IMG/VR virus record: IMGVR_UViG_3300045988_007914
Origin: a virus
Reading direction: 5' to 3' (one strand)
DNA length: 46,574 bases
Below, in pieces: positions 3,673-41,690 of the stretch; positions within the stretch are counted from its first letter, which is position 1, and each line of letters begins with the position of its first letter. The notes below the pieces were generated by a model, which was given only the letters and a program-made list of their open reading frames with translations, had not been told where the DNA came from and did not search any database. Position numbers and translations under genes: made by a program.

Positions 3673-5069
3673 TTGAAGTCTCAAACACACTGACGGTCGA
3701 GAACCCTACCCCGGAAATGGTGCTGTGGTGCAAGAGAAATCTTACCATACCAAACCCGGAATATGCGAAGAAATCTCGCATGAACCTATGGCTCGGCAAC
3801 ACGCCGAAAGTCCTGTCGCTCTATGAGACCCGAGGAACAACGCTGGTACTTCCGTTTGGAACACTCCGGCTACTACCGAAGGACATATCCGATAAGGCAC
3901 TGTTCTTGAGCGAATTTGCCGCCCCTGTGAAGGTGAATTATAACGCTGATGTTCCACTCTATGACTACCAAGAAACCGCCGTACAAGCGATGGTAGCCGC
4001 CCAGTATGGGATATTACAGAGTGCCGCCGGAAGCGGTAAAACGCAGATGGGTATTGCCCTCGCCGCAAGGCTGGGACGGCGTACATTATGGCTCTGCCAC
4101 ACACTCGACCTTATTAAACAGAGTAAGGAACGAGCCAAGCTCTATATGAGTGAAGACCTCATGGGTACTATCACGGAAGGAAAAGTCAATCTCGGTGAGG
4201 GAATCACCTTCGCCACGATTCAGACGATGTGCAAGCTCGACCTCGCACAGTACCGGGACTACTGGGATTGCATTATCACAGACGAGGTACACCGGGTCAG
4301 CGGCAGTCCTACCGCCGTGACACAGTATCAAAAAGTGCTGAACAGTTTATCGGCACGACACAAGTACGGTTTGTCAGCAACGGTACACAGGTCAGACGGA
4401 ATGATTCGAGCTACCTACGCCCTTGTTGGTGAGGTCGCTTACAAAGTCCCGGACGAAGCTGTGGCTGACAAGATTATGAAGGTAGGTATCTACCCTGTGG
4501 GTACAGGGGTGCAGATAAGCCGGGAAGCCCTTAACACGGACGGAACGTTGAACTACACCAAGCTCATTACCTATCTTACCGAAAACGCCGCCCGGAATCA
4601 GCTCATTGCCGATTCCATCGAGCAGAGACCTTCTCTGATTCTGTCGGACAGGCTGAATCACCTTGAAACATTGATAAGTCTTCTCCCGGTTGATATGCAG
4701 AAGGACGCTGTGATGATAAGCGGCAAAATGACAACTAAAAAGGGCAAGGCTGAACGAGAACAGGCTCTTGAGGACATGAGGAGTGGCAAGAAGAAATACC
4801 TCTTTGCTACATACTCACTGGCGAAGGAAGGGCTGGACGTACCACGGTTGGAGCGTCTGTACCTCACCACCCCACAGAAGGACTACGCTGTGGTGACACA
4901 GAGTATCGGGCGTATCGCTCGTACCTTCGATGGAAAGTCAGACCCTATCGCCTACGATTTCGTGGACGATATAGCTTACCTCGTGAAGTCCTATAAGAAG
5001 CGATGTACGACCTATCGAAAGAACGGTTGCTACTTCGTAAAGGAAGGAGGGACAAGCCCATGCGATTGA
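3654..5069 (+). CDS. SF2 DEAD/DEAH-box DNA helicase
   Basis: Walker A AAGSGKT, motif II DEVH, helicase C-terminal domain. Confidence 0.85.
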   Translation: MVEEMLIEVSNTLTVENPTPEMVLWCKRNLTIPNPEYAKKSRMNLWLGNTPKVLSLYETRGTTLVLPFGTLRLLPKDISDKALFLSEFAAPVKVNYNADVPLYDYQETAVQAMVAAQYGILQSAAGSGKTQMGIALAARLGRRTLWLCHTLDLIKQSKERAKLYMSEDLMGTITEGKVNLGEGITFATIQTMCKLDLAQYRDYWDCIITDEVHRVSGSPTAVTQYQKVLNSLSARHKYGLSATVHRSDGMIRATYALVGEVAYKVPDEAVADKIMKVGIYPVGTGVQISREALNTDGTLNYTKLITYLTENAARNQLIADSIEQRPSLILSDRLNHLETLISLLPVDMQKDAVMISGKMTTKKGKAEREQALEDMRSGKKKYLFATYSLAKEGLDVPRLERLYLTTPQKDYAVVTQSIGRIARTFDGKSDPIAYDFVDDIAYLVKSYKKRCTTYRKNGCYFVKEGGTSPCD

Positions 5070-7567
5070 TTTCTTATGACTGTGAGGTCTTCGCCTATGA
5101 CTGGCTCGTAACCCTCAAGGATAAGGAAACAGGCGTTTACACCTGTATTTGGAACGACAACGAAGCTCTGAAAATGGCATTGTCCGATGATTGTATTTAT
5201 GTCGGTTTCAACTCGAAACACTACGACCAGTACATCATCAAAGCGATTGCCGCCGGGTTTGCCCCGGAGGAAATTAAAAAGGTCAACGATTTCATTATTG
5301 CCGGAGGGCAAGGCTGGCAGTGTCCGCTACTTGATGGTATCTACTTCCGTTTCAGCAACGTGGATATTCGAGACGATACGCAACAGGGTCTATCCCTTAA
5401 AGCTATCGAAGGACACCTCGGTATGTCGGTTAAAGAATCCAGTGTACCGTTTGACATTGACCGTCCTCTAACCCCGGAGGAAAAAGCCGAGACGGAGTTC
5501 TACTGTAAACATGACGTTGATACCGCCGAGAGACTGATTGACATTCGTAAAGACTACTTGAAGAACAAAATCAACCTCGGTCGGCTGGCTGGTCTTGATG
5601 AAGTCAAGGCAATGGGTATGACGAACGCCAAACTGACTGCGGCAATGCTGAAAGCAACCAAGAAGCCACACGATGATGAACGCAAGTATGTCTACCCGGA
5701 CAATCTGCGAAAAGAGTACATACCACCCGAGGTTTTCGCTTTCTTCGATAGAATGTATGACCTCTCCATTTCGGACAGTGAGCTTTTCAAAGGCAAGTTC
5801 AATCTGAACATCGGTGAGTGTCCTGTGACACTCGGGTATGGCGGTATTCATGGTGCAATCCCAAACTTCTTTTGGGAGGAAACCGAGGATAGAGGAATTT
5901 GGAATGAGGACGTAGGAAGCTACTACCCACACCTCTGTACCATCAATGGGTACACAAGCAGAAACATTCCGTCTCCGCAGATTTACGAGGACATTCTTGA
6001 CCGCCGAATGAAAGCGAAAGCCGCTGGCGATAAGCACACGGCGAACGCTCTGAAACTGGTTTGCAACACCACCTACGGTTGCTTGCTGAATCAGTACAAC
6101 GACCTCTACGACCCTCTCATGGGTAGGTCGGTCTGCATTTCCGGGCAGTTATATCTACTGGAACTTGCAGAGCATTGTTACCAAGAGATTGAAGGACTGC
6201 GAATTGTCCAGCTCAACACGGACGGTATCATGGTCGAGTGCGATAAGAAGGACTACGACACACTGACCGCTATCTGTGCTGAATGGCAGTCTCGTACAGG
6301 CTTTGACCTCGAGGAAGATACCGTTGTCAAGATAGCGCAGAAAGACGTAAACAACTACGTTGAGGTTCAGCCGGGCGGCAAAGCAAAAGCCAAAGGCGGC
6401 TATCTCGTGAAGGGTATCGCTCCGGCTGGTGCTTTCAATATCAATAACTCCTGTGTGATTGTGGCTACCGCTCTCAAGGAATTCTTTGTAAACGGAACGC
6501 CTGTCGAAGACACCATAAATAGTTGCGATGATATTTTCCAGTTTCAGATTATCGCCAAAGCCGGGGCGAAGTACCGAGAAGCCTATCATGTGGTGGACGG
6601 TGAAAAGCAGTCCGTTCAGAAGGTGAACCGAGTGTACGCCACAGCGGACGAGAGATACGGAAAAATCTTCAAGGTGAAAGCCGAGGACGATTCCGAAGCG
6701 AAAATAGATTCTCTCCCGGAACACTGTATCATCGACAACGATAATGAGCTTTCCATTGACGAGGTAGACAGAAGTTTCTACATCACAATGGCGAAAAAGC
6801 GAGTTGACGATTTCAAGGGTATCAAACCCGAAAAAACTAAAAAGCCAAGGAGGACAAAGAAAATGGCAACTACTACCAAGACCGCAAATGTATATCAGAA
6901 GCTCCTTACTGCAAGGGCAAAGTTCCTTGAAGCGAACGTGGAGAAGACAGGAAAGAATATGCACCTGTCCTTCAAATACTTCGAGCTTGAGGACATTGTA
7001 CCGACCGCTATCCGCATTTTCAATGAGGTTGGTCTTATCCCTGTGGTGAACTTCACCGCTGATGTTGCAGCCATGAACATCATCAACACCGACAACCCGG
7101 AGGAATCCGTACCGTTCGTTGCTCCGTTTAATCAGATTGCTCCTATCGTGAGCAACGCTGGCAAACAGGCTACAAACGAAATGCAAGCTCTCGGTTCTTC
7201 CATCACCTATATGCGCCGTTACCTGTATATGATTGCGCTGGACATTTGCGAGAGCGATTCCATTGACGCAAATCTCGGCAAGGGTGAGACTGCTTCCGCT
7301 CCGGCGGCAGAGAGAAAAGCTCCGGCTACTCCCGAACAGAGACAAGAAGTGAAACAGGAACTCACTGCTCCGGCTGACAACGCTTCTACTTTACAGATTA
7401 AGGGTCTGAAAGCAGTTCTCAAGAAGCTCAAGGACGCTGACCCGAGCAAGGAGGAACTGATTGCGAATATCGCAGTACAGACCAAGGGATTCACGGAGAT
7501 TTCCAAGTCCGATTGCGAAACGCTGATTCAGAAGATTACCGCAATGCTGGAAGGAGGGGCTAAGTAA
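5060..7567 (+). CDS. Family-B DNA polymerase continuing in frame into an ERF-type single-strand annealing domain
   Basis: Track ORF 5003..7567 trimmed to the ATG at 5060 (GGAGGG RBS). Exo motifs YDCEVF, FNSKHYD, YCKHDVD. Polymerase motifs DVGSYYPH, KLVCNTTYG, LNTDGI. There is no stop before the ERF part. Confidence 0.75.
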   Translation: MRLISYDCEVFAYDWLVTLKDKETGVYTCIWNDNEALKMALSDDCIYVGFNSKHYDQYIIKAIAAGFAPEEIKKVNDFIIAGGQGWQCPLLDGIYFRFSNVDIRDDTQQGLSLKAIEGHLGMSVKESSVPFDIDRPLTPEEKAETEFYCKHDVDTAERLIDIRKDYLKNKINLGRLAGLDEVKAMGMTNAKLTAAMLKATKKPHDDERKYVYPDNLRKEYIPPEVFAFFDRMYDLSISDSELFKGKFNLNIGECPVTLGYGGIHGAIPNFFWEETEDRGIWNEDVGSYYPHLCTINGYTSRNIPSPQIYEDILDRRMKAKAAGDKHTANALKLVCNTTYGCLLNQYNDLYDPLMGRSVCISGQLYLLELAEHCYQEIEGLRIVQLNTDGIMVECDKKDYDTLTAICAEWQSRTGFDLEEDTVVKIAQKDVNNYVEVQPGGKAKAKGGYLVKGIAPAGAFNINNSCVIVATALKEFFVNGTPVEDTINSCDDIFQFQIIAKAGAKYREAYHVVDGEKQSVQKVNRVYATADERYGKIFKVKAEDDSEAKIDSLPEHCIIDNDNELSIDEVDRSFYITMAKKRVDDFKGIKPEKTKKPRRTKKMATTTKTANVYQKLLTARAKFLEANVEKTGKNMHLSFKYFELEDIVPTAIRIFNEVGLIPVVNFTADVAAMNIINTDNPEESVPFVAPFNQIAPIVSNAGKQATNEMQALGSSITYMRRYLYMIALDICESDSIDANLGKGETASAPAAERKAPATPEQRQEVKQELTAPADNASTLQIKGLKAVLKKLKDADPSKEELIANIAVQTKGFTEISKSDCETLIQKITAMLEGGAK
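6863..7567 (+). CDS. erf: ERF-family annealase, possibly translated separately from an internal start
   Basis: AAGGAGG at 6847-6853, 9 nt before the in-frame ATG at 6863. ..SFKYFELEDIVPTAIRIFNEVGL..GSSITYMRRYLYMIALDI.. resembles P22 Erf. Confidence 0.55.
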   Translation: MATTTKTANVYQKLLTARAKFLEANVEKTGKNMHLSFKYFELEDIVPTAIRIFNEVGLIPVVNFTADVAAMNIINTDNPEESVPFVAPFNQIAPIVSNAGKQATNEMQALGSSITYMRRYLYMIALDICESDSIDANLGKGETASAPAAERKAPATPEQRQEVKQELTAPADNASTLQIKGLKAVLKKLKDADPSKEELIANIAVQTKGFTEISKSDCETLIQKITAMLEGGAK

Positions 7568-8601
7568 TGGCAGACATTAAGTGGCTCGAGGGCAATCGTA
7601 TTCAGATTGCCCCTCCAAAGAGAACCAAGAAAATCACTGGTACTCGCTTCGCTACTATCCTCGGTCTGAATCCGTGGAGTACCGCATTTGAAATGTGGTG
7701 TGCGATTACCAAGACCTATGAGAAGCCCTTCGAGGACACTATCTACACGGTCGCTGGTAAGACCATCGAACCGAAACAAGCTCGCTACATGGAGCAGTCC
7801 TACGGCATGGACATTGTTCGCCCTTCTGATGTGTGGGGGGAGGACTACTTCAATAAGACATGGGGAGATTTCTTCCCGGAGAGCAAGCACCTCGGCGGTA
7901 TGTGGGACTATCTGATGAAGGGTGAAGATGGTAAGACCATTGAAGCTGTTCTCGAAATGAAGACCACCAAACGTGCGGAGGACTGGCAGAACGATGTTCC
8001 CGAGTATTACGCATTACAGGCGGCATTATACGCTTACCTGTACGGTGTGGACGATGTGATTATGGTCGCTTCCTTCCTTGACGAGAAGGACTACAAAGAC
8101 CCGGCGGCGTATCAGCCGACCGCAAGCAACACCATTACTGTTGAGTTCAAGGTCTCCGAGCGTTACCCGGACTTCGCAGACAAGGTAGCCACTGTTGAGC
8201 AGTGGTGGGCTGATTATGTCGATACTGGTATCTCCCCGGAGTATGACGAGAAGAAGGACGCTGAAATCCTTGCGGCACTCCGCACCAACACCCTGTCTCC
8301 CGAGACTGACATTGAAGCTCTGATTGCAGAAGCCGAAGGTCTCAAGAAGGAGCTGGACGAGATTTCTGCTTCCACAGCAGACAAGGAGAAGCGTCTCAAG
8401 ACCATCAACGACATTATCAAGGAACACGCTATGGGGCAGTTCCGTGACGGTGACAAGAAGGTCGAGGTCAAGGGTTCTACCTATGTGTGGACTGTCTCTC
8501 GTTCCGAGACTACCAGCGTTGATAAGGACGCTCTGAAAGCTGACGGCTTGCTGGATAAGTACAGCAAGAAATCTGAAACCTACCGTATGACGGTTAAATA
8601 A
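7567..8601 (+). CDS. YqaJ/lambda-Exo-like recombination exonuclease with a C-terminal coiled-coil extension
   Basis: ..ITGTRFATILGLNPW.., LEMKTT. Confidence 0.8.
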   Translation: MADIKWLEGNRIQIAPPKRTKKITGTRFATILGLNPWSTAFEMWCAITKTYEKPFEDTIYTVAGKTIEPKQARYMEQSYGMDIVRPSDVWGEDYFNKTWGDFFPESKHLGGMWDYLMKGEDGKTIEAVLEMKTTKRAEDWQNDVPEYYALQAALYAYLYGVDDVIMVASFLDEKDYKDPAAYQPTASNTITVEFKVSERYPDFADKVATVEQWWADYVDTGISPEYDEKKDAEILAALRTNTLSPETDIEALIAEAEGLKKELDEISASTADKEKRLKTINDIIKEHAMGQFRDGDKKVEVKGSTYVWTVSRSETTSVDKDALKADGLLDKYSKKSETYRMTVK

Positions 8602-14193: not shown

Positions 14194-14245
14194 GATAAAA
14201 ATTTATCTTTTAGGTATTGACATTCAATCTTGTATGTGTTATCTT
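14194..14245 (+). promoter_or_regulatory. Operator GATAAAAATTTATC plus an extended -10 promoter (TTGACA-17-TGT-TATCTT)
   Basis: Palindrome at 14194-14207, a 9-nt gap, TTGACA at 14217-14222, TATCTT at 14240-14245. The whole unit is homologous to 20600-20714. Confidence 0.55.
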
Positions 14246-14298: not shown

Positions 14299-14886
14299 AT
14301 GGAAGTTATGAGAAACATGACTATTGACACTGAACTGTTTGAACTGGGAGACATTATCTCCTTCACACTCATCACCGGGGAGAAGGTTAAAGCGAAAGCC
14401 ATTCGTGAGACCCCGAACGGTATGCTTTTCATTACCGTTGACTGTCTCAAGGACGAGCAGAAAATGTTCGAGAATCCCGGCAGAGCCGAAAAGGTTGACT
14501 ACGAACATTCCGACCTTCGCAAGAAGCTGAACGGAGAAATCTTCGAGAGCTTCCCGGAGGAAATCAAGGGTCGCATGGTTGGTATGCGAGTAGGTCAGAC
14601 GAACTGCTTTGATATGCTCCGTATTCCTACCGAGCGTGAAATCTTCGGAGAGAACCCTTACGGTAAGGACGAGCCTGTATCTGTGAGACGCTTCTACGGC
14701 ATGGAGAACCGCCGTGAGCGTATCGCTTTCCAAGGCTCGGAGACAGGTACATGGGAATGGTACTGGTTGCAGAACAAGGTTGAGGATTCCGCTTCCCTTT
14801 TCGCCAGTGTCGACGGCGACGGTCGTGCGGCCTGCGGCGACGCTTCCGATTCTTTTGGCGTTCGCCCGGTCTTTCTCTTATCCTAA
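14299..14886 (+). CDS. DGR target protein 2 (195 aa, C-type-lectin/DUF6273-like fold, no signal peptide or structural N-domain seen)
   Basis: Track ORF trimmed to the ATG at 14299, after AAGGAGG. C-terminus ..WEWYWLQNKVEDSASLFASVDGDGRAACGDASDSFGVRPVFLLS carries VR2. Confidence 0.85.
   Translation: MEVMRNMTIDTELFELGDIISFTLITGEKVKAKAIRETPNGMLFITVDCLKDEQKMFENPGRAEKVDYEHSDLRKKLNGEIFESFPEEIKGRMVGMRVGQTNCFDMLRIPTEREIFGENPYGKDEPVSVRRFYGMENRRERIAFQGSETGTWEWYWLQNKVEDSASLFASVDGDGRAACGDASDSFGVRPVFLLS
14785..14869 (+). repeat. DGR variable repeat VR2
   Basis: 85 nt align without gaps to TR 42232-42316. All 18 mismatches fall on TR adenines. Confidence 0.9.
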
Positions 14887-15107: not shown

Positions 15108-15237
15108 CACTGTCGTAGACGAGAATAACACCGTGAAAATTGGCACACAGCCTGTTTTCTGCGTAACCGAGCAGTGTTCGTGGTGGTTGGAGGACAAACA
15201 GAAATGTGCAATCGCAGTTATGGGAGGTAAGAAATAA
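15070..15237 (+). CDS. Small protein (55 aa), TAATG-coupled to the MazF-like gene
   Basis: AGGAGG RBS. MEQNKICPLLTTNTVVDENNTVKIGTQPVFCVTEQCSWWLEDKQKCAIAVMGGKK. Confidence 0.4.
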   Translation: MEQNKICPLLTTNTVVDENNTVKIGTQPVFCVTEQCSWWLEDKQKCAIAVMGGKK

Positions 15238-15695
15238 TGGCATATTACATGAATAAGAGCGTCCCGGCGAAGCGAGGAGATATTTTCTACATTTCCAACT
15301 CCAAGTGCTACGCCACAGACCCGAGTAATACAGAGGGAAGACCAGCAATCGTTGTCTCCTCTGATAAATTGAATGAACACGCAGATGTTGTCGAGGTAGT
15401 CTTTCTCACCACCAAGGAAAAGCGTCTCATGCCTACTCACGCAGAGGTGCTGTGCAAGATTCCTTCAACTGCTCTGTGTGAGACCATCTATACGGTCAAT
15501 AAGGACAGGCTGGGCGATTTCGTCCGTACCTGTACCGATAAGGAAATGGAGGGTGTCAATGCTGGAATCCTCTGCTCACTCGGTATCGCCGCTCCTGTGG
15601 TCGATGGTGAGCCTGTTGACAACTCTGTAACGGTCGAGAGGAATCTTTACAAGCACCTCTACGAAGACCTTCTCAATAAGGTAATGGCGAGGTGA
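15237..15695 (+). CDS. PemK/MazF-fold toxin-like protein with a ~40-aa C-terminal extension
   Basis: ..AKRGDIFYI..EGRPAIVVSSD..VVEVVFLTTK.. matches the MazF/PemK N-terminal pattern. Confidence 0.6.
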   Translation: MAYYMNKSVPAKRGDIFYISNSKCYATDPSNTEGRPAIVVSSDKLNEHADVVEVVFLTTKEKRLMPTHAEVLCKIPSTALCETIYTVNKDRLGDFVRTCTDKEMEGVNAGILCSLGIAAPVVDGEPVDNSVTVERNLYKHLYEDLLNKVMAR

Positions 15696-17598: not shown

Positions 17599-18258
17599 AT
17601 GAGCGGACAAATCGCATTGCGTCCGTCATACTGGGCGAGCGTTTCCGGCGGCAAAGATAGTTTGTATATGCTGAATTACATACTGCATAACCTCGATAGA
17701 TACCCTCTCAACGGAGTTGTCCATTTTGAACTCGAAATCGACTATCCGTTTATTCACGATGTTATCGACTACATGGAATCCGAATGTAAGAGGTTCGGTA
17801 TTCAGTTCGTGAGAATCAAACCCCGGAAGTCATGGGGAGAACTGTATGATAAATACGGTTTCCCAACGAGAAAAGCAAGGTGGTGCAACGGTCACTATAA
17901 ACTGGACGCAAGTAGACAGTTATCCGAGTGGTTGAATGAAGTCGGTTTTTATGTAGTGCATTATATCGGGTATTGTGCTGACGAGGAACGCCGTTTCAAC
18001 AAACGGTTGAGTGCCAAAAAGTTAGAGATATACCCTCTTGCAGAAAACGGTATTAACGAAGATGTGATTTTAGAATGGGCGAAGACACAACCTATCTTCA
18101 ATCACTACTACGAGATTAACCAGCGTTGCGGTTGTATGTACTGCCCCATGTCCTCTTATCTGAACTTCGCATACCTGTATAAATACTATCCCGATAATTT
18201 CCAGTTTATGATTGGAAAAATGCGAGAAACCGAAAGATTGAGAGAGAGAGCTTGGTAG
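17599..18258 (+). CDS. PAPS-reductase/PP-loop family protein, apparently truncated at a (GA)n tract
   Basis: SVSGGKDS PP-loop, C-terminal CGCMYCP. The +1 frame stays open for 44 more codons after GAGAGAGAGAG at 18240-18250. Confidence 0.75.
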   Translation: MSGQIALRPSYWASVSGGKDSLYMLNYILHNLDRYPLNGVVHFELEIDYPFIHDVIDYMESECKRFGIQFVRIKPRKSWGELYDKYGFPTRKARWCNGHYKLDASRQLSEWLNEVGFYVVHYIGYCADEERRFNKRLSAKKLEIYPLAENGINEDVILEWAKTQPIFNHYYEINQRCGCMYCPMSSYLNFAYLYKYYPDNFQFMIGKMRETERLRERAW

Positions 18259-19300: not shown

Positions 19301-19314
19301 GATAAGTATTTATC
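19301..19314. promoter_or_regulatory. Fourth copy of the GATAA-N4-TTATC palindrome (GATAAGTATTTATC), followed by a degenerate copy of the P14/P20 promoter
   Basis: 19335-19362 (TATCTGAAAAGGATTGAAAAACAATCTT) parallels 20618-20645, but no good -10 follows. Confidence 0.4.
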
Positions 19315-19392: not shown

Positions 19393-19503
19393 AGTAGTTA
19401 AAGTAGCTGTTCTCAAGGTATTGCGTGTAACTTCCTCTATATAGAAAAATCCCTATATATAGAAGTTATACGCAAAAACCGATTTTCAACTACTTCTACT
19501 ACT
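19393..19503. repeat. Nested-palindromic repeat element, copy A (weaker dyad symmetry extends over 19381-19521)
   Basis: AGTAGTTAAAGTAG...CTACTTCTACTACT termini and inner arms GCGTGTAACTTCCTCTATATA / TATATAGAAGTTATACGC. Homologous to 23082-23190 and, inverted, to 46041-46149. Confidence 0.85.
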
Positions 19504-19533: not shown

Positions 19534-20253
19534 ATGGATATAGATAAGCTGTTAGCAGACAGTTCCGGGGATTCCGAGGAGACTGTTGCGACTAAGGAGA
19601 CTGTTTCCAGCGAGGAGACTGCAATCAGTCCTCGTACCGGGAAACCGATTCAGAAGAAATATGCACCAAAGAAGAAAGGTAAGCCCCGAGGAGGTAATAA
19701 CTGGTTGAAGCCGGAAAACATCGCTCCGGGGCTTGAAGCTGGTGATAACACGAAGTTTCTCTCCGTCAATATGGCGTTGATGAATATGCCGGACATTGAC
19801 ATGGAGAATCCGTTGGAGGTGCAACAGCGACTTTCCGACTATTTTGCTTTGTATGCACAGTATGACATGAAACCTACGGTTGTGGGTATGGCTATTGCGC
19901 TGAATGGACACAACAGACAGTGGCTTTATGCGGTTACACATGACGTACCGGGAGGTGGTGCTGGATATAAGATTGCGTTGCCGCCGGAGGTAGCTGACGT
20001 AATAAAAAAGGCGTACTTTTTGCTCGAAAATTTGTGGGAAAACTATATGCAAAGTGGCAAGGTCAACCCGGTAGCTGGTATCTTCCTCGGCAAGAACAAC
20101 TATGGCTACCAAGACAAGACCGAGTACGTTCTCACACCGAACCAGCAGAACGACAACGACTATTCCGCTGATGAAATCAGAGAACGCTACATTGCAAGCG
20201 ACCAGCAGAAGCGACTTTCAGCAAGCAACTCTGACGAGGACACGAGCGACTAA
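19534..20253 (+). CDS. terS: Terminase small subunit
   Basis: ..KPTVVGMAIALN.. HTH-like part and ..AGIFLGKNNYGYQDK.. hallmark. First gene after the early region. Confidence 0.75.
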   Translation: MDIDKLLADSSGDSEETVATKETVSSEETAISPRTGKPIQKKYAPKKKGKPRGGNNWLKPENIAPGLEAGDNTKFLSVNMALMNMPDIDMENPLEVQQRLSDYFALYAQYDMKPTVVGMAIALNGHNRQWLYAVTHDVPGGGAGYKIALPPEVADVIKKAYFLLENLWENYMQSGKVNPVAGIFLGKNNYGYQDKTEYVLTPNQQNDNDYSADEIRERYIASDQQKRLSASNSDEDTSD

Positions 20254-20325
20254 GCGACTTTCGCCCACGCTCCGACTTTCCGACTATCAGCCGAGCGACT
20301 ATCGACTTTCGACTATCGACTATGA
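20247..20325 (+). repeat. Array of 8 CGACT(A/T)(A/T) motifs straddling the terS stop; the last four form a 7-bp tandem
   Basis: CGACTAA, CGACTTT, CGACTTT, CGACTAT, then CGACTAT CGACTTT CGACTAT CGACTAT at 20296-20323. Confidence 0.7.
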
Positions 20326-20329
20326 AATT

Positions 20330-20354
20330 GCTCCGGGATTTCCCGGGGCTTTTT
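20330..20354 (+). terminator. Rho-independent terminator
   Basis: GCTCCGGG-ATTT-CCCGGGGC followed by TTTTT. Confidence 0.65.
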
Positions 20355-20442
20355 CTATGCAAAAATTCACGGAAATTTTCAGAAAATCAGCCGGACACGG
20401 CACTTACCTCTTTAACACTTTAATACAATAAAGCAAAATGCA

Positions 20443-20480
20443 CCCCGGGCGGCGTGGGTGAATGTGTCCGGCGGCGTTCC
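20443..20480 (+). repeat. Left direct repeat bounding the foreign cassette
   Basis: CCCCGGGCGGCGTGGGTGAATGTGTCCGGCGGCGTTCC recurs at 22493-22538 with a 14-nt insertion and 2 differences. The 15-mer TGTGTCCGGCGGCGT recurs exactly at 22545-22559. Confidence 0.6.
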
Positions 20481-20536
20481 TTCCATATAATGCGAATTTT
20501 GCGCCCGGTTCAATTCGTAAATTTAGAATTTAGGTA

Positions 20537-20565
20537 TTGACAATTCGTATAATAAGAATTAGAAT
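20537..20565 (+). promoter_or_regulatory. Copy of the immunity-region rightward promoter (TTGACA-17-TAGAAT)
   Basis: 20510-20571 aligns with 1901-1962 at about 85 percent identity. A 34-nt core differs at 1 base. Confidence 0.55.
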
Positions 20566-20607
20566 AACAATAACAACACAAACAAGATAAACCGCCAACA
20601 CGAAAAA

Positions 20608-20659
20608 GATAAATTTTTATCTGAAAAGTATTGACAAACAATCTTGAAAGTGTTATTGT
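20608..20659 (+). promoter_or_regulatory. Operator GATAAATTTTTATC plus an extended -10 promoter (TTGACA-17-TGT-TATTGT)
   Basis: Palindrome at 20608-20621, a 9-nt gap, TTGACA at 20631-20636, TATTGT at 20654-20659. Confidence 0.55.
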
Positions 20660-20714
20660 ATAGTCAAGGCAAGACAAGAAACAACACAAATAAGATTATA
20701 TGGAGGTTTTCAAA

Positions 20715-21002
20715 ATGAAAAGATATGAATTAGCACCGAACGGAACACAAAAAAGTTTCTATGGGAAAGCCGTTGTCGAAATTGACAACGCCGGAAACGA
20801 AACGCTTTACAGCTATAACACCCCTATTATAAAGCGGCTTGCAAATGGTTCGCTTGTTAGGTTGTGGGGCGGTTGGAGTAACACCACCGGGAAACATATA
20901 AAAGCGTTTTGCGGTTTGAATAAAGCCGGGTTTATGGGGCTTGAACACGAAACAACGCCACAAGAAAAAGCGGCGGCGTATAACGGTACACTTTACAGAT
21001 AA
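20715..21002 (+). CDS. Hypothetical small protein (cassette gene 1)
   Basis: Track ORF trimmed to the ATG at 20715, after GGAGG. AT-rich, AAA/TTT-biased codon use unlike the rest of the genome. Confidence 0.6.
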   Translation: MKRYELAPNGTQKSFYGKAVVEIDNAGNETLYSYNTPIIKRLANGSLVRLWGGWSNTTGKHIKAFCGLNKAGFMGLEHETTPQEKAAAYNGTLYR

Positions 21003-21021
21003 TAGAACGGAGGGAAAGAAA

Positions 21022-21366
21022 ATGAAAGTTAAAACCACAAGAAAAGCTATTGTAAACGGTTCTTATAATGTTAAATGCGCCGGGTATTGCGATTTGTCCT
21101 ATTTGCTGAATAATCATTCCCCCATTGCGTACACTTGCGGCGTGTATGGTTGGAATTTTGATGTTTATGAGGTTTACGGCGTTACTATTTGTACAGGTTA
21201 TAGAAATATGCCGGGTGCAAGGCTTCAAAAAATTAGCGAATATGAGGAAAAAGCCCGGGCTATTTTGAGTTGGGAAGATAAACGCCCATTTGAAGAAAAG
21301 CAAATAGCCGTTGAAAACCTTTTGAAAGAATTTTGTAAATTGAACGGGGGCGTTATTTATGAATAA
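21022..21366 (+). CDS. Hypothetical small protein (cassette gene 2)
   Basis: Track ORF trimmed to the ATG at 21022, after ACGGAGGGA. Confidence 0.6.
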   Translation: MKVKTTRKAIVNGSYNVKCAGYCDLSYLLNNHSPIAYTCGVYGWNFDVYEVYGVTICTGYRNMPGARLQKISEYEEKARAILSWEDKRPFEEKQIAVENLLKEFCKLNGGVIYE

Positions 21367-21715
21367 ATACAGCTTTACGAACAACGGCAAAACGTGGGAA
21401 CGTATCACGAAAAAGCAAGCCCGGGCGGCTTATAACAACGGTTTAACCGTTCTGTTTTGCCCGGTGAATATGCGCCCCTTTACGCCGTGGCATTTAGAAA
21501 TTGACGTAAACAAGAATTTTGAAGGTTATAACGGCGTTACTTTTGAAAAAGCCGTGAACGCTTTTGAAATTTATAATTGCACCGACAACGAAACCGGGCG
21601 TTATACGGCGTTTTATATCCCGGTTGTAACGGTTGACAGGTTCACCGGGGAAACGCCCACGGCGTACACGTTGGAAACGATAAAACAATACGATTATAGC
21701 GTTATGGAGGGGTGA
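21359..21715 (+). CDS. Hypothetical small protein (cassette gene 3)
   Basis: Track ORF overlapping its neighbours. Confidence 0.6.
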   Translation: MNKYSFTNNGKTWERITKKQARAAYNNGLTVLFCPVNMRPFTPWHLEIDVNKNFEGYNGVTFEKAVNAFEIYNCTDNETGRYTAFYIPVVTVDRFTGETPTAYTLETIKQYDYSVMEG

Positions 21716-21718
21716 AAA

Positions 21719-21982
21719 ATGAAAAGATTTGAAAGTTTATGTAACGAATACAGGGAAAACAAAAGATTGATTGAAGAATTGCAAGCCATGAACGATTCTA
21801 TAAAATCGGATATTCTTGCAATCATGGGAAACGATGAAACACACGTTGAAGGGGCGGCAAAAGCGACAAATAAAACCGTTGTTTCAAGTCGTTTTGATTC
21901 AACCGGATTCAAAAAAGAATACCCGGATTTGTTCACGGAATACAGCCGGGAAACAAGTTATAAACGCTTTTGTGTTCTGTAA
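21719..21982 (+). CDS. Hypothetical small protein (cassette gene 4)
   Basis: Track ORF with a GGAGGGG RBS. Confidence 0.6.
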   Translation: MKRFESLCNEYRENKRLIEELQAMNDSIKSDILAIMGNDETHVEGAAKATNKTVVSSRFDSTGFKKEYPDLFTEYSRETSYKRFCVL

Positions 21983-21995
21983 AGGGGGTTTTATT

Positions 21996-22304
21996 ATGAT
22001 ACATTATAAATTTGTTTCGTGGGACGTTCCCGCATTTGAAACGATTTTAACCGGGCGTATTCCGGCGGCGTTGCTTGCCGCTGATAATGGGAATTTACAG
22101 CCGTTGAAGGATTTACACATTGCAACACAAACCCCGGTTTATAAATGTTCCGGCTGGTGTATTCCTTTTGCGGAATATATGCGCCGCTTTTGGGTGAAAA
22201 CAAAATATTACGGCATTATTAAAATGTACGCATTGAATAAAACAGATATTAGAAAAGAGTTGAAAAGTAATGTAATTGAAATTATGGAGGTTAAAAAGAA
22301 TTGA
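21996..22304 (+). CDS. Hypothetical small protein (cassette gene 5)
   Basis: Track ORF 21816..22304 trimmed to the ATG at 21996. Confidence 0.55.
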   Translation: MIHYKFVSWDVPAFETILTGRIPAALLAADNGNLQPLKDLHIATQTPVYKCSGWCIPFAEYMRRFWVKTKYYGIIKMYALNKTDIRKELKSNVIEIMEVKKN

Positions 22305-22369
22305 TAATATTGTGTATTTTAATTTTTCCGTTCGTTGTGTTAGCTGATTTACTGAAAATGAATAAATAA
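22301..22369 (+). CDS. Possible 22-aa hydrophobic peptide (TTG start), paralogue of 24372..24482
   Basis: Own translation: MIILCILIFPFVVLADLLKMNK. It shares ILIFPF.VL....KMN with the other peptide. Confidence 0.3.
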   Translation: MIILCILIFPFVVLADLLKMNK

Positions 22370-22374
22370 TTTTA

Positions 22375-22402
22375 CAGCCCCGGTTATATGCCGGGGCTTT
22401 TT
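22375..22402 (+). terminator. Rho-independent terminator closing the cassette
   Basis: CAGCCCCGG-TTATATG-CCGGGGCT followed by TTTTT. Confidence 0.7.
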
Positions 22403-22492
22403 CGTGCGTGTACCGCCGCCCGGTAAACGTAAAATATAATCAAGAATAGCCGCCCGGGTATGCGTGGCAAGCCTTGAACGCTTGTGAACGTG

Positions 22493-22718
22493 CCCCGGGC
22501 TTGTGTCGTTCGTGGGCGTGGGTGCATTGTGTCCGGCGTTCGTTGTGTCCGGCGGCGTGGGTTGTTCGGTCGTTCGTGTCGTTGTGTCCGGCTTGCGTTG
22601 TGGGGCGTTTGTGGGCGTTTTCCGGGGCTTTTGTGCGTGGGTGTATGTTTTGATGGGTTTACCGTTTCCCGGGCTTGTGGCGGCGTTCTATGCGGTGTAT
22701 GGGTATGCCCCCGGGGGG
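22493..22718 (+). other. Adenine-depleted GT-rich tract (7 A in 226 nt; none in 22527-22644) with internal repeats
   Basis: Counted by eye. TTGTGTCCGGC occurs 3 times, GCGTGGGT(G/T) 3 times, and CGTTCGT several times. Confidence 0.9.
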
Positions 22719-22788
22719 ATTGACAAGGGGCGAAACCGGGCGAGGGAGTACGCTGAATATTCTCAAAAAATAAAAAGACCCTATAAAA

Positions 22789-22840
22789 GATAATTTCTTA
22801 TCCTATCAGTGTTGACAATCTCCCTTTCTCGTGCTATACT
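22789..22840 (+). promoter_or_regulatory. Operator GATAATTTCTTATC plus an extended -10 promoter (TTGACA-17-TGC-TATACT)
   Basis: Palindrome at 22789-22802, a 9-nt gap, TTGACA at 22812-22817, TATACT at 22835-22840. Confidence 0.55.
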
Positions 22841-22872: not shown

Positions 22873-23082
22873 ATGGTTAAGAATAACATTGAAGTTGATG
22901 TAAAGGTGAAGCTCCTCGAAGCTGGGAAGACACAACAGCAGTTGGGTGAAGAAATCGGCACTACTGGACAGTACATCAACCGAGTTCTCAAGAAGAATGG
23001 TGGAATCGTGAACGATACCTTCGTGAAAATGATGGACGCTCTCGGTTATAACATCGTTCTCACCTACGAAAAGAAGGATTGA
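22873..23082 (+). CDS. Small XRE-family HTH regulator (69 aa)
   Basis: ..GKTQQQLGEEIGTTGQYINRVLK.. HTH. AGGAGG RBS. Confidence 0.7.
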   Translation: MVKNNIEVDVKVKLLEAGKTQQQLGEEIGTTGQYINRVLKKNGGIVNDTFVKMMDALGYNIVLTYEKKD

Positions 23083-23190
23083 AGTAGTTAAAGTAGTTGA
23101 AAACAGCATTTTGCGTGTAACTTCCTCTTAGTACACGCATATATAGCAAAAGTTACCGCAATTTTTGATTTTCTACTACTTTTACTACTT
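23082..23190. repeat. Nested-palindromic repeat element, copy B
   Basis: AAGTAGTTAAAGTAGTTGAAAA...TTTTCTACTACTTTTACTACTT. It starts on the last base of the HTH stop codon and ends 17 nt before the recombinase GTG. Confidence 0.85.
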
Positions 23191-23207
23191 GAGGAGGTGA
23201 ATATCTC

Positions 23208-23963
23208 GTGAAAGCGATTGGTTATATCCGTGTATCTACGGAGGAACAGTCTGCGGACGATAAATACGGTATCGAGGTACAGAAACAGGCGATTTCAGAT
23301 TATGCCAACAGGAATGATTTTGAAATCGTGTGCTGGCTGACCGATACAATCAGCGGTGCGAAGGACAACCGCCCGGAACTGGACAAGATTCTCTACAATG
23401 CAGACCAGCTCCCGGCACATGAAGCCGTGATTGTGTTCAAGAATGACCGTGTTGCTCGTGACACAAAATTGTATTTCTACTACTTCTACACGCTCGAGAA
23501 GCGGAACGTGAAGCTGTTGTCTACCGAGGAGCATTTCTCGGAGGGTGATGATTTCGCCAACATCTACCGCTCTCTGCTGATGTTCGTTGCTGAACAGGAA
23601 CGAAAGAACATTGCTCTGCGTACCGGGCGTGGGCGGTCTCTCAAGGCACAGTGCGGTGGGTATTCCGGCGGCAACAAGCCGTATGGTTATTACTGCGTAG
23701 ACGGTATGCTCATGCAGAACCCGGAAGAACGACCTATCGTGGAGACGGTATTCCGAGAGCATGACGAGAATCACACCTCTTTGCTGGACATTTGCGAGAT
23801 TCTATACGATGGTGGGTATCGAACCCGAAAAGGCAAGAGATTTCAGCCGTCCACCATTCGAGGAATCCTATCTAACCGTCCCTTCTATGAGGGTAAGTAC
23901 AAATATGGAGACATGGGCTGGGTGCAGGGCGTACACTCCCCGATTCTCCCATTGGAGGTGTAG
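23208..23963 (+). CDS. Second serine recombinase, short form (251 aa): catalytic plus partial recombinase domain, no zinc ribbon or coiled coil
   Basis: MKAIGYIRVSTEEQ.. (Ser nucleophile), ..FKNDRVARD.., ..GGNKPYGYY... GTG start after GAGGAGG. Confidence 0.8.
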   Translation: MKAIGYIRVSTEEQSADDKYGIEVQKQAISDYANRNDFEIVCWLTDTISGAKDNRPELDKILYNADQLPAHEAVIVFKNDRVARDTKLYFYYFYTLEKRNVKLLSTEEHFSEGDDFANIYRSLLMFVAEQERKNIALRTGRGRSLKAQCGGYSGGNKPYGYYCVDGMLMQNPEERPIVETVFREHDENHTSLLDICEILYDGGYRTRKGKRFQPSTIRGILSNRPFYEGKYKYGDMGWVQGVHSPILPLEV

Positions 23964-23965: not shown

Positions 23966-24367
23966 ATGAAGAAAATGCTATCTATTATGCTTGCCGGAGT
24001 GCTTATGCTGGCGGTCTCCGGGTGTGAAGCTGAACCACAACACAAGGTCTCGTATGTCAGCGGAGAAAAGCTCACTGTTCTCGAGCAGTACGATTGTGTA
24101 GCTGTCTATACGCAGTACACCAACGACAGCTCCGAAACTGCTGTCCCGGCTGATGAAGTGTCGGTCAAAGCATTTCAGAACGGTGTCGAATTGTCACCGA
24201 TTGTCCCGACAAGTGACAGAACCAACGGCTATGTGCAGTGTGATTCCAATGTGCAGAGCGGCACGACCGCTGATGTGGTGTGGCTGTTCGAGCTTGACGA
24301 TGATTCTACCGTATCGGTGGAGCTGTCCGGCGGCGAGAAGGTCGAAATCCCATTGACAGAGGAATGA
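23966..24367 (+). CDS. Lipoprotein (DUF4352/DUF5067-like beta domain)
   Basis: Signal peptide with lipobox LMLAVSGC. GGAGG RBS. Confidence 0.75.
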   Translation: MKKMLSIMLAGVLMLAVSGCEAEPQHKVSYVSGEKLTVLEQYDCVAVYTQYTNDSSETAVPADEVSVKAFQNGVELSPIVPTSDRTNGYVQCDSNVQSGTTADVVWLFELDDDSTVSVELSGGEKVEIPLTEE

Positions 24368-24544: not shown

Positions 24545-24557
24545 TTTGGAGGTATTT

Positions 24558-26192
24558 ATGAAAGAGTTACTTGAAAAAATTCTCGGGCAAATAAAAAAGA
24601 CACCCTCCGGGGTAAGAGCCTACGAGGATTTATACCATATCTGTCTCGAGACACAGAAGACAGACATTCCCCTATCCGTAGAGTATCTGAAAAAGCTGTC
24701 AGACATTATCGAGAATCGGATTCCGCAGTCTGAAACAGACAAGGAGCTTCGCTCCCTGTTTATGCTTCACAAAAAGGTTCTGCTTGCCGCCGCCCCATTC
24801 GATTTTGAAAGCTATCTGCTCTATGTCGAATGGGAACGTGAGCCGGACAAGAAGTTTTATGTCCCTCGCCGTGAGGTCATGCACCCTGTCGTACAGGCAA
24901 TGCAAGATTTGATTGACGATAGACTGGACTTGCTGACGATTTCCATGCCGCCCGGTACTGGCAAGTCCACTCTCGGTATCTTCTTCTTGTCGTGGGTCAT
25001 GGGTCGATTCCCGGATTCGCAGTCCCTTGCGTCTGCTCACTCGGGTATGCTGACACGCTCCTTCTATGACGGTGTATATCAGATTATCACCGACAGCGAG
25101 TACCTGTGGGCTGATGTGTTCCCGGGAGTAAAGATGGCGGCAACGAACTCCAAGGAAGAAACCATCGACCTTCACAAGAAGCACCGATTCTCTACTCTGA
25201 CCTGTCGAGCAATCAATGCTTCATTGACTGGTGCTACTCGATGTGACAAAATCCTCTACGCCGATGACTTGTGTTCCGGCATTGAGGAAGCTATGAGCAA
25301 GGAGCGATTGGATAAGCTGTGGAGTGCCTACACCAATGACCTTAAATCTCGAAAAAAGGAAGGTGCGAAGGAAATCCATATCGCTACCCGATGGTCTGTC
25401 CATGATGTTATCGGTCGATTGGAGAATCAGTACGGCGGTGATTCCCGAGCGAAGTTCATTGTTCTTCCGGCACTGGACGCAGACGGTGAAAGTAATTTCA
25501 ATTACACCTACGGTGTCGGATTCAGCCGCCACTATTTCGAGGACATGAGGAACAACCTTGATGAAGCGTCTTTCAAGGCTCTGTTTATGAATCAGCCTAT
25601 CGAGCGTGAGGGTCTGCTCTACGATGTGGACGAACTGCGCCGATATTTTGAGCTTCCGGCAGAAGACCCGGACGCTATTATCGGTATTTGTGATACCAAG
25701 GACAAGGGTTCTGACTACGCTTTCCTCCCGGCGGCGTATGTGTACGGTAATGACTACTACATTGACGATTGTGTCTGTGATAACAGCTTACCGAACATCG
25801 TTGACGCTCGATTGGTGGACATACTGCTCCGATGTAAAGTCAAAATGTGCCGTTTCGAGAGCAATTCCGCTGGTGGTCGTGTTGCCGAAAAGGTGCAGAA
25901 CGAGGTTAAGAAGCGTGGCGGTATCACTCGCATTACGACCAAGTTCACTACTGCCAATAAGGAGACAAAAATCATCGTCAACAGTGCATGGGTCAAGGAA
26001 CACTGCCTGTTCAAAGACGATAGCCTGTATAAACGTCAGAGTGATTACGGTCGCATGATGGATATGCTCGGCTCTTACACCGTGGCTGGTAAAAACAAGC
26101 ACGATGATGTTCCCGATGGTATGGCTATGCTGGCAGAGTTCGCACAAAGTCTGTCCGGCGCAAGGGTTGAGGTATTTCAGAGACCGTGGTAA
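24558..26192 (+). CDS. terL: Terminase large subunit
   Basis: Walker A MPPGTGKST, Walker B ILYADDL, C-terminal nuclease part. ATG at 24558 after GGAGG. Confidence 0.9.
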   Translation: MKELLEKILGQIKKTPSGVRAYEDLYHICLETQKTDIPLSVEYLKKLSDIIENRIPQSETDKELRSLFMLHKKVLLAAAPFDFESYLLYVEWEREPDKKFYVPRREVMHPVVQAMQDLIDDRLDLLTISMPPGTGKSTLGIFFLSWVMGRFPDSQSLASAHSGMLTRSFYDGVYQIITDSEYLWADVFPGVKMAATNSKEETIDLHKKHRFSTLTCRAINASLTGATRCDKILYADDLCSGIEEAMSKERLDKLWSAYTNDLKSRKKEGAKEIHIATRWSVHDVIGRLENQYGGDSRAKFIVLPALDADGESNFNYTYGVGFSRHYFEDMRNNLDEASFKALFMNQPIEREGLLYDVDELRRYFELPAEDPDAIIGICDTKDKGSDYAFLPAAYVYGNDYYIDDCVCDNSLPNIVDARLVDILLRCKVKMCRFESNSAGGRVAEKVQNEVKKRGGITRITTKFTTANKETKIIVNSAWVKEHCLFKDDSLYKRQSDYGRMMDMLGSYTVAGKNKHDDVPDGMAMLAEFAQSLSGARVEVFQRPW

Positions 26193-40744: not shown

Positions 40745-41647
40745 ATGAGTGCAATCAGTATTGAAACCAAGAAAGTGACGGAACTCACGGCGTTCACCAC
40801 ACCGACCGATTCGTGTCTGATTCCGATTCACGATGGCACAGGCTTGAAGAAAATCACCTTTGCCAATTTCAGAGCCAAGGCGGTTGAGGGTACGGAAGCG
40901 AAAATCGCTCCTCTGCTCTTTAGCAACGCCGGGGCGCACAATGCAATTTACCGTGGTAAGTCGCTGGGTAACACCGTGACTACCGCCCAGTATGCCGCTA
41001 TCAAGGCTGGTACATTCGATGATTTATACATCGGTGACTACTGGACTATCGGCGGTGTCAACTACCGTATTGCGGCGTTCGATTACTACCTCAACAGTGG
41101 TGATACGAACTGTACTACTCACCATGTAGTTATCGTGCCGGACACTTGCCTGTACAACGCACAAATGCACAACACCAGCTCCGGCAGTTGGGAAAGCGGT
41201 GCGGCAAATACTACGGCTGGCGGCTATGTCGGCTCGGATATGTACAAGAGCAATCTCGAACAGGCTAAGACCACTATCAAGAGTGCGTTCAGCGGTCATG
41301 TTCTGAAACACAGAATCTATCTTACGAACGCTGTTGCGAATGGTCGTGCTTCCGGCGGCGCATGGTGCGATTCCGAAGTTGACCTTATGTGCGAGCAGAT
41401 GGTCTACGGCAGTGGTATTTTCTCCCCTGTTTCTGACGGTAGCAATGTCCCGGCTAACTACCGTGTCGAGAAATCCCAGTTGCCGCTGTTCCAGCATGAG
41501 CCGAGCCGTATTTGCAATCGTGCGACATGGTGGTTAAGAGACGTTATTACCGCTTCCTTTTTCGCCTTTGTCGACTACTACGGTGATGCGGGCTACAACT
41601 TCGCTTCCTTTTCTATTGGCGTTCGCCCGGCTTTCTGTATATCTTAA
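40745..41647 (+). CDS. DGR target protein 1: receptor-binding tail fibre with a C-type-lectin-fold C-terminus
   Basis: C-terminus ..WWLRDVITASFFAFVDYYGDAGYNFASFSIGVRPAFCIS carries VR1. Confidence 0.9.
   Translation: MSAISIETKKVTELTAFTTPTDSCLIPIHDGTGLKKITFANFRAKAVEGTEAKIAPLLFSNAGAHNAIYRGKSLGNTVTTAQYAAIKAGTFDDLYIGDYWTIGGVNYRIAAFDYYLNSGDTNCTTHHVVIVPDTCLYNAQMHNTSSGSWESGAANTTAGGYVGSDMYKSNLEQAKTTIKSAFSGHVLKHRIYLTNAVANGRASGGAWCDSEVDLMCEQMVYGSGIFSPVSDGSNVPANYRVEKSQLPLFQHEPSRICNRATWWLRDVITASFFAFVDYYGDAGYNFASFSIGVRPAFCIS
41550..41635 (+). repeat. DGR variable repeat VR1
   Basis: 41550-41630 aligns without gaps to TR 42236-42316. All 15 mismatches fall on TR adenines. Confidence 0.9.
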
Positions 41648-41650
41648 ATC

Positions 41651-41671: not shown

Positions 41672-41690
41672 CAAGGAGGTTTATTAACAA

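Follow-up and report, generated by a model that had tools for sequence, protein, structure and literature searches.

A hypervariable accessory-gene slot between terS and terL in a common gut prophage, with cargo proposed to act early in counter-defense or host takeover

We analyzed a 46,574-nucleotide (nt) stretch of DNA, IMG/VR virus record IMGVR_UViG_3300045988_007914 (hereafter the window), which is a complete temperate siphophage genome of ~46.5 kb, and focused on a cassette of five small open reading frames (ORFs), g1 to g5, located between its terS-like gene and terL. Our favored interpretation, to which we assign a probability of roughly 0.6, is that the region from 20.25 to 22.87 kb is a hypervariable accessory slot between the terS-like gene and a conserved block of helix-turn-helix (HTH), serine recombinase, lipoprotein, and terL genes, and that the cargo of this slot is an early counter-defense/host-takeover unit. 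We are highly confident in the anatomy of the slot; the early counter-defense or host-takeover role of the cargo is a tentative proposal, for which we put the odds slightly below even.

A scan for terS relatives yielded 79 viral loci, onto which we mapped the proteins and DNA of the window; slot counts are based on the 54 loci that hold both terS and terL. In all 54, down to 42% terS identity, the terS–terL interval measured 3.2–6.1 kb. The left part of this interval was hypervariable: the flanks of the slot were 95–100% identical while the cargo differed, and close relatives carried at least eight cargo combinations. Besides g1–g5, these included g1–g4 plus another gene, F31-g3-g4-g5, F12-F14-g4-g5 (F numbers designate alternative occupants), and F16 (methyltransferase-like) followed by F21 or F44 and then by divergent g3 and g4, and more distant phages had inverted arrays in the slot. 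The commonest occupant was g4, which was present in 26 of the 54 slots, followed by g1 (23), g3 (22), g2 (20), and g5 (13). Homology breakpoints fell mostly at gene boundaries (20707–20721, 21357, 21704, 21998, and 22284–22294); others recurred at 20453 and at several points within 22553–22708. Constant around the changing cargo were the terS terminator, the module of promoter P2, a micro-ORF, the exit terminator, a GT-rich tract, and the HTH promoter and gene (Table 1).

Two predicted promoters, P1 and P2, precede g1. The P1 core (TTGACA-17-TAGAAT, 20537–20565) scored 11/12 and differed from the immunity-region promoter at 1928–1956 at 1 of 29 positions, and both flanking operators were copied along with it. 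The motif of these operators, AATTCG-N8-GAATT, was confined to positions 1903, 1933, 1967, and 2089 in the switch region and to positions 20512 and 20542 in P1 (12 strand-counts, 1.45 expected). One P1 operator lies just 5' of the -35 element, and the other lies over the spacer and the start of the -10 element. As judged by sequence, P1 is a duplicate of the rightward promoter of the immunity switch, that is, of the repressor-controlled early promoter. Because P1 carries both switch operators, it is predicted to be silent in the lysogen and to fire with the first lytic transcripts. Among the relatives, a group that we refer to as type B did not have P1. The P2 module was kept at the slot entrance regardless of the cargo, and it was duplicated in type-B relatives.

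At the other end of the slot, the micro-ORF was kept behind differing upstream genes. Across 30 DNA versions of the micro-ORF, variable sites at codon positions 1, 2, and 3 numbered 15, 4, and 19, respectively, and some versions had an ATG start; it is part of the constant frame and not of the cargo. All six ORFs (g1–g5 and the micro-ORF) have a Shine-Dalgarno sequence, and a single terminator follows at the end, with a stem of 9 bp that includes 7 GC pairs. At the sequence level, the cassette thus has a moron-type layout, with its own promoter and terminator and a composition unlike that of the phage. The original prediction had described five small overlapping ORFs of 95–118 amino acids (aa), preceded by a copy of the immunity-region promoter and by a GATAA-N4-TTATC promoter, closed by a terminator, and followed by a small HTH gene with the same operator. 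Both promoters, the terminator, and the HTH gene with its operator were recovered in our analysis, as were the five ORFs; however, the ORFs range from 87 to 118 aa (g4 has 87), only g2 and g3 overlap, and the micro-ORF had been missed as a sixth coding feature.

The cassette had also been singled out as compositionally foreign, with a flip in codon style and frequent CCGG-containing strings, and quantitative profiling bore this out. The GC content of the genes at 20715–22304 was 0.404 versus 0.476 for the window, which ranked 51st lowest among 4499 segments of the same size. Based on symmetrised dinucleotide distance to the genome, these genes were the strongest outlier, at 0.296 versus a mean of 0.068 (standard deviation 0.047) for segments of the same size, and the genome-wide maximum (0.312) occurred at 20901, within the cassette. 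Relative abundances in the cassette genes were 0.50 for AG/CT, 0.68 for GA/TC, and 1.61 for CG. Codon preferences differed sharply between cassette and genome (AAA 0.86 versus 0.36, GAA 0.88 versus 0.45, TTT 0.83 versus 0.24, and CTC 0 versus 0.30). CCGG occurred 18 times in the cassette genes versus 2.5 expected, spread over all three frames, and 36 times across 20254–22760 versus ~5 expected. The bias was strand-symmetric, with ACT/AGT, CTC/GAG, and AGG/CCT depleted and CCG/CGG enriched 2.5–2.9-fold; it is therefore a signature at the level of DNA and not an amino-acid effect.

Unrelated cargo families in the relatives had the same composition (CCGG observed/expected 3–9; AG/CT relative abundance 0.45–0.8). 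In none of the lineages examined (79 loci) did the backbone on either side of the slot show this composition, and it was likewise missing from the HTH and recombinase genes and from the sampled host-side flanks; the latter were retrieved via the holin and were themselves too heterogeneous (GC 0.37–0.65) to act as a clean host reference. No source lineage was found: two divergent relatives of g3 yielded no viral-contig loci, and none of the backbones of the 79 loci matched. We rejected a composition intrinsic to the protein families, since a g1 homologue in Clostridium phage Amboise carries the composition of Amboise itself. We also considered avoidance of restriction sites limited to the segment that enters the cell first. 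However, GATC and CTAG were missing from the entire phage, including the slot (179 expected each), and CGCG and GGCC occurred once each (149 expected each), so the slot is not special in site avoidance, and this idea was rejected as stated. GCGC (33 versus 149 expected) and ACGT (59 versus 179 expected) were also depleted in the whole window; the cargo, unlike the backbone, did not avoid GCGC, ACGT, or AATT. The pattern of composition is compatible with a rapidly turning-over cargo drawn from a common outside pool. The view that the cargo genes are foreign accessory cargo is supported, as is their placement among packaging genes with their own promoters and terminator.

The proteins encoded by g1–g5 yielded no function in Pfam, PHROG, or NCBIfam searches. 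The g1 protein belongs to the DUF8033 (PF26096) family based on precomputed Pfam matches to an identical protein and to all 120 listed relatives, and it matched phrog_4264 at 1.9e-12; a direct Pfam search of g1 gave no match, and a literature search found no mention of DUF8033. The search with g1 gave 6601 homologues; in annotated phages, relatives of g1 were located within the annotated terminal repeat of Bacillus phage P59, 2 kb from the genome end in a Staphylococcus Herelleviridae phage, and, as an early gene, in the early operon adjoining the switch of Clostridium phage Amboise. SPO1-type terminal repeats carry host-takeover genes. The search with g2 identified 1764 homologues, and none of the 120 listed was informatively named. 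AlphaFold2 models of g1 (predicted local distance difference test [pLDDT] 82) and g2 (pLDDT 85, predicted template modeling score 0.73) were confident and had no fold match in the PDB (best E-values 0.34 and 0.19, respectively); matches to g2 in BFVD were uncharacterised phage proteins only. At E ≤ 1e-3, g3 had relatives in 836 representative clusters, of which the 150 listed span 46–187 aa, with no long multi-domain fusions among these 150, and Pfam searches of 39 diverse members gave no match. For g5, Pfam, PHROG, and NCBIfam were all without a match.

Sequence alignment showed that g4 is homologous, as a free-standing protein, to the C-terminal tail of RecE-like exonucleases. It aligned to positions 273–359 of 372 in phrog_434 (E 3.4e-13), the family to which the phage's own exonuclease (7567–8601) aligned at positions 63–357, and it aligned with the tail of that exonuclease with five invariant residues. 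BLASTP alone did not detect the relationship between g4 and the exonuclease tail. Because the nuclease core is missing from g4, it is a tail homologue and no exonuclease. A PDB sequence search with g1 and g4 returned nothing.

Among the alternative occupants, three small proteins are extremely acidic (net charges of -26 for F12, -36 for F21, and -28 for F51), a pattern that resembles that of DNA-mimic anti-restriction proteins, albeit only as a resemblance; the slot can also hold a RadC-like JAB protein or a methyltransferase-like protein with a weak match. When g1–g5 and 60 alternative slot proteins were searched with Pfam, PHROGs, NCBIfam, and PADLOC, no functions emerged except RadC, FtsK-like, DUF4352, HTH, and the weak methyltransferase, and the only match to PADLOC defense-system models was an FtsK-like ATPase cross-matching SspH/HerA models. 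No known anti-CRISPR (Acr) or other anti-defense family was found among g1–g5 in Pfam, PHROG, and NCBIfam, with folds compared for g1 and g2 only and no dedicated Acr library searched. Housekeeping phage functions for the five proteins would have spoken against the original prediction; in the same family searches and in the fold searches of g1 and g2, none was found. The suggestion that the cassette might recur in leading regions of conjugative elements fared less well, as neither g1 nor g2 had a homologue in TBLASTN searches of 72,556 plasmids. Near and distant DNA searches with the cassette, run on the same plasmids and on 50,697 phage records, gave nothing beyond an HTH match and a match at 72% between g1 and Clostridium phage Amboise.

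Table 1. Features of the slot and of the surrounding genome, in order of position in the window.
Feature	Position	Strand	Description
Large serine integrase	1 to ~1466, split over window ends	-	Gene-order annotation
CI-like repressor	1519-1878	-	Gene-order annotation
GATAA-N4-TTATC site	14194-14207	+	9 nt 5' of TTGACA promoter, before DUF6273/PemK-like/primase block
GATAA-N4-TTATC site	19301-19314	+	5' of palindromic element and terS-like gene; no convincing promoter hexamers after it
terS-like gene	19534-20253	+	Precedes slot
Entry terminator	20330-20354	+	Left slot edge, closes terS-like gene; stem GCTCCGGGATTTCCCGGGGC (20330-20349), then TTTTT
Left GT-rich mini-tract	20443-20480	+	Left repeat copy; 15-mer at 20463-20477
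P1 (predicted promoter)	20512-20565	+	Operators 20512-20530 and 20542-20560; -35 20537-20542; -10 20560-20565
P2 (predicted promoter)	20608-20659	+	Palindrome GATAAATTTTTATC (20608-20621), 9 nt, TTGACA-17-TATTGT (20631-20659), TG before -10
g1	20715-21002	+	95 aa, DUF8033 (PF26096) family
g2	21022-21366	+	114 aa, no known family
g3	21359-21715	+	118 aa, no known family; conserved core residues 1-88
g4	21719-21982	+	87 aa, free-standing homologue of RecE-like exonuclease C-terminal tail
g5	21996-22304	+	102 aa, no known family; rarest of the five
Micro-ORF	22301-22369	+	TTG start; encodes LIILCILIFPFVVLADLLKMNK, a hydrophobic 22-aa (membrane) peptide
Cassette (exit) terminator	22376-22403	+	Stem 22376-22398, then TTTTT
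Right GT-rich tract	22404-22760	+	GC 0.59, CCGG-rich, non-coding, short degenerate repeats; repeat copies at 22493-22558
HTH-gene promoter (predicted)	22789-22840	+	GATAATTTCTTATC (22789-22802), 9 nt, TTGACA-17-TATACT
HTH gene	22873-23082	+	XRE-type, 69 aa; Pfam HTH_3 at 6e-5

The palindrome GATAA-N4-TTATC, which forms part of P2, occurs in exactly four copies in the window; 1.3 matches are expected at up to one mismatch. Three copies (14194, 20608, and 22789) lie 9 nt 5' of good TTGACA promoters. At P2, the palindrome ends 9 nt 5' of the -35 element and is centred near -52 rather than over the promoter. Between the cassette and the HTH gene are the terminator, the GT-rich tract of ~360 nt, and the separate promoter of the HTH gene. 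The HTH protein was 100% identical across relatives with quite different cargo, and in more distant relatives the palindrome becomes weaker as the HTH protein diverges. The HTH protein is thus a putative binder of the GATAA-N4-TTATC sites. Because the site also occurs at 14194 and 19301 and the HTH protein is invariant across cargo, this protein is probably an autoregulated, phage-wide regulator (repressor or activator) and not a dedicated, cassette-specific anti-CRISPR-associated (Aca) protein.

Based on these observations, the slot has a constant frame that opens with a terminator and one or two promoters and closes with the micro-ORF, a second terminator, a GT-rich spacer, and the HTH gene. 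Inside this frame, related phages swap cargo genes singly, apparently by recombining at gene boundaries and in the GT-rich borders, and the g1–g5 set is one among many cargo combinations. In this genome, the cargo would form one autonomous transcription unit, silent in the lysogen and switched on with the first lytic transcripts via P1; P2 would belong to a four-site phage regulon and would probably answer to the neighboring HTH protein. The products would be early counter-defense/host-takeover proteins, each probably binding a host protein; we propose host-protein binding because none of them has an enzymatic signature. The g4 protein may act as a mimic or competitor of the tail found on the phage's own RecE-like exonuclease.

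Several points weigh against this proposal. None of the cargo proteins resembles a protein whose function is known, so the role proposed for the cargo is drawn from its context. Type-B relatives do not have P1, so control by an early promoter is not universal to the slot. In the lysogen, P2 may be active and the cargo may be expressed; the adjoining variable DUF5067 lipoprotein gene is of a type typical of lysogen-expressed exclusion genes. The link between the HTH protein and the operator is drawn solely from their co-occurrence, and the promoters, terminators, and transcripts are all predicted. Finally, under this proposal only a common donor pool, which was itself not found, would account for the composition that the cargo genes share.

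The main rival explanation is that the cargo genes are morons expressed from the prophage, driven by P2 in the lysogen and beneficial to the host, for example through superinfection exclusion, defense, or lysogenic conversion. An autonomous promoter-terminator unit of deviant composition between conserved genes is the classical moron layout, and relatives that do not have P1 depend on P2-type promoters only; in addition, a variable lipoprotein gene is located 1.7 kb downstream, and the frame closes with a small membrane peptide. However, the presence of both switch operators in P1 predicts repression in the lysogen of this phage, the PADLOC defense models were unmatched aside from the ATPase cross-matches, and relatives of g1 occur in early or terminal regions of virulent Herelleviridae, which are phages without lysogeny. 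On balance, we consider expression as prophage morons unlikely.

Still less probable are two explanations that give a specific role to the HTH gene or to the repeats that flank the cassette. The cassette might be an Acr operon in which g1–g5 encode Acr-type inhibitors and the HTH gene encodes their dedicated Aca repressor. One palindrome does precede both the cassette promoter and the HTH promoter, and the genes are small, without known function, and part of a variable island; the acr locus of Pseudomonas Mu-like phages is likewise embedded in the packaging/head region, a likeness that we count in favor of this idea. It is nevertheless very improbable: the HTH gene is outside the operon, is invariant whatever the cargo, and has its site at two further loci; the site is 5' of the -35 element and not over the promoter; and no Acr family was matched in general libraries, nor any fold for g1 and g2. 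The Acr/Aca analogy of the original prediction is therefore retained only in part, in that the regulatory logic and the neighbors suggest early counter-defense or host takeover. Alternatively, a discrete mobile cassette might have been inserted site-specifically by the 251-aa serine recombinase, whose gene lies 650 nt downstream; the repeats would then be att scars or target duplications. The unit is flanked by an exact 15-mer (TGTGTCCGGCGGCGT, at 20463–20477 and 22544–22558; expected count 0.03) and by a longer repeat of ~38 nt that aligns with a 14-nt gap and two 1-nt gaps, and the recurrent breakpoint at 20453 lies inside the left repeat, where homology to 13 relatives stops (20451–20453). 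However, both repeat copies surround different genes in five relatives (L016, L019, L022, L030, and L043), and g1–g5 is present without the left copy in three others (L002, L003, and L006). The repeats thus go with the frame rather than with the cargo, and they are not scars left by insertion of g1–g5. Moreover, both copies are embedded in degenerate GT-rich tracts whose short motifs recur in all relatives, breakpoints are mostly at gene boundaries, and the recombinase gene is a conserved backbone gene. We find a mobile cassette of this kind scarcely credible, although the repeat tracts may be places of recombination. Thus, the repeats described in the original prediction are present, including the 14-nt insertion and the exact 15-mer (the right copy of which had been placed one base off), but their reading as marks of insertion does not hold. 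All close relatives had the right GT-rich tract itself, which came in several sequence variants with no conserved ORF across them; we rejected a structured RNA in this tract (RNA-fold z = -0.2).

A more far-reaching idea, which we regard as rather improbable, is that the slot is a dedicated gene-exchange platform and that its cargo pool has its own DNA "dialect" (CCGG up ~5-fold, AG/CT down ~2-fold, CpG-rich, and strand-symmetric), missing from every backbone examined. If so, there would be a class of donor replicons, not yet recognised, that feeds many Lachnospiraceae phages; alternatively, there would be locus-specific selection, such as CCGG-dependent recognition or methylation, or selection on pac-proximal DNA that enters the cell first. 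The slot would then be a phage counterpart of the integron, and its cargo a concentrated, untapped library of new counter-defense proteins.

The phage that carries the slot is a very common gut (Dorea/Lachnospiraceae) prophage. Identical proteins on contigs of ~46.5 kb recur across many gut metagenomes, an assembly collection indexes the exact g2 protein in 4845 blocks, and terL is 99% identical to a prophage gene of Dorea ammoniilytica, whose assembly GCA_025567415.1 carries the prophage. The early region encodes a helicase, a DNA polymerase, an Erf-like annealase, and the RecE-like exonuclease, and the primases come next. The polymerase (residues 20–613) and the Erf-like single-strand annealing domain (residues 607–850) are parts of a single 854-aa ORF at 5003–7567, and the exonuclease with the g4-like tail is encoded directly 3' of this ORF. 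In the operon that starts from the promoter at 14194, a second DUF6273 gene (14299–14886) is under this P2-type promoter, and a PemK/MazF-like toxin gene (15237–15695, Pfam E 2.2e-15) has no obvious antitoxin annotated. After the D5-type primase gene, a further variable locus (17599–18258) holds a PAPS-reductase-like gene here and an RtcB, radical-SAM-like, or other gene in relatives.

On the 3' side of the slot are, in order, the HTH gene, the 251-aa serine recombinase gene, the DUF5067 lipoprotein gene, and terL (24546–26192), followed by portal, head, and tail genes, a diversity-generating retroelement, endolysin, and holin. The recombinase (23208–23963) has Resolvase and Recombinase domains only, with no zinc ribbon or coiled coil; thousands of database entries share this length, as do relatives at 60–83% identity, and the recombinase is present alongside the full-length serine integrase encoded across the window ends. 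The lipoprotein gene before terL constitutes another variable locus (23966–24367), as other lipoprotein or secreted-protein genes take its place in relatives. The retroelement (40745–43598) comprises a reverse transcriptase gene (42387–43598), a template repeat (42236–42321), and a variable repeat (41550–41635); the latter lies at the 3' end of a DUF6273 gene of the tail region, and 16/16 mismatches between the repeats are at template adenines.

The stop codon of the terS-like gene is directly followed by ~7 copies of CGACT(A/T)TC (20240–20325), within which Tandem Repeats Finder reported a repeat of period 7 with 4 copies at 20296–20323; these repeats are a candidate terminase-binding (pac) site. 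A near-perfect palindromic element of ~110 nt is present in two copies, 5' of the terS-like gene (19393–19503) and 5' of the small recombinase gene (23083–23193), with RNA-fold z-scores of -9.7 and -5.7, respectively. In relatives, we identified 54 distinct copies, some of which precede holin and lipoprotein genes. The arms of the element (AGTAGTTAAAGTAG... and TTGCGTGTAACTT...) are invariant and show no covariation, so an RNA processing site and a protein-binding DNA site are equally possible; no Rfam family matched anywhere in the window, including these palindromes. We rejected the element as a recombination boundary of the variable region, since variability stops near 22700 and not at 23083. 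On two contigs, L008 (13560–13950) and L055 (13380–13650), a truncated terL/portal gene is fused to the 3' end of the endolysin gene, the palindromic element, and the holin gene; these junctions probably represent assembly chimerism at the repeated element, and these contigs should be treated with caution.

The slot holds dozens of small protein families without known function or solved fold, at a location where counter-defense and host-takeover genes are expected. To our knowledge, few anti-defense proteins are known for Lachnospiraceae defense systems, and the slot provides a prevalence-ranked source of candidates for screens against such systems. Its constant frame (duplicated switch promoter, regulon promoter, micro-ORF, and terminator) could act as a search handle for equivalent slots, and the composition of the cargo, if it is the mark of a common donor pool, could help trace gene flow among gut phages.

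Compared with known systems, the layout has several partial counterparts. The morons of lambdoid/HK97-type phages (Hendrix and colleagues) are autonomous units expressed from the prophage, and, as in the cassette, a promoter-gene-terminator unit with a deviant composition interrupts a group of genes that belong together; unlike classical morons, the unit in this phage has a copy of a repressor-controlled lytic promoter, and early lytic expression is predicted. Like the acr-aca loci of Pseudomonas Mu-like phages such as JBD30, the slot combines variable small genes in the packaging/head region with a strong independent promoter and with an HTH protein whose putative palindromic site is associated with that promoter; unlike at those loci, the HTH gene is outside the operon and invariant, its putative sites are at four loci and 5' of the -35 element, and no homology to an Acr was detected. 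In SPO1-like and Kayvirus-like Herelleviridae, the terminal repeats are host-takeover modules with arrays of small early genes. These modules resemble the slot in having small genes without known function, and the DUF8033 family of g1 occurs in both; however, those modules lie at the genome termini of virulent phages, whereas the slot is an internal region of ~2.6 kb in a temperate phage. In the integron platform, promoter-less cargo genes are exchanged behind a fixed promoter, and the slot likewise has a fixed frame with a promoter and swaps promoter-less cargo, but it has no attC-like sites after each gene and no tyrosine integrase, and exchange apparently takes place at gene boundaries.

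The closest comparison is with the diversity hotspots of phages. Hypervariable phage hotspots with cargo of mostly unknown function are an established category (iLund4u survey, bioRxiv 10.1101/2024.10.15.618418). As in these hotspots, the flanks of the slot are conserved while the cargo differs in close relatives, and the cargo is organized in transcription units and is mostly without known function. The defense hotspots of phages P2 and P4 are further phage hotspots with accessory cargo. Unlike hotspots with multi-gene defense systems, the slot has cargo that consists mostly of single small genes of ~70–240 aa; it also differs from phage diversity hotspots in that its frame provides the promoters, the terminal micro-ORF, and the terminator, and in that unrelated cargo families share one odd DNA composition. 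The slot is therefore a new, well-delimited, and very prevalent member of the hypervariable hotspot category, and it has two unusual traits, the duplicated switch promoter in its frame and the cargo-wide DNA signature.

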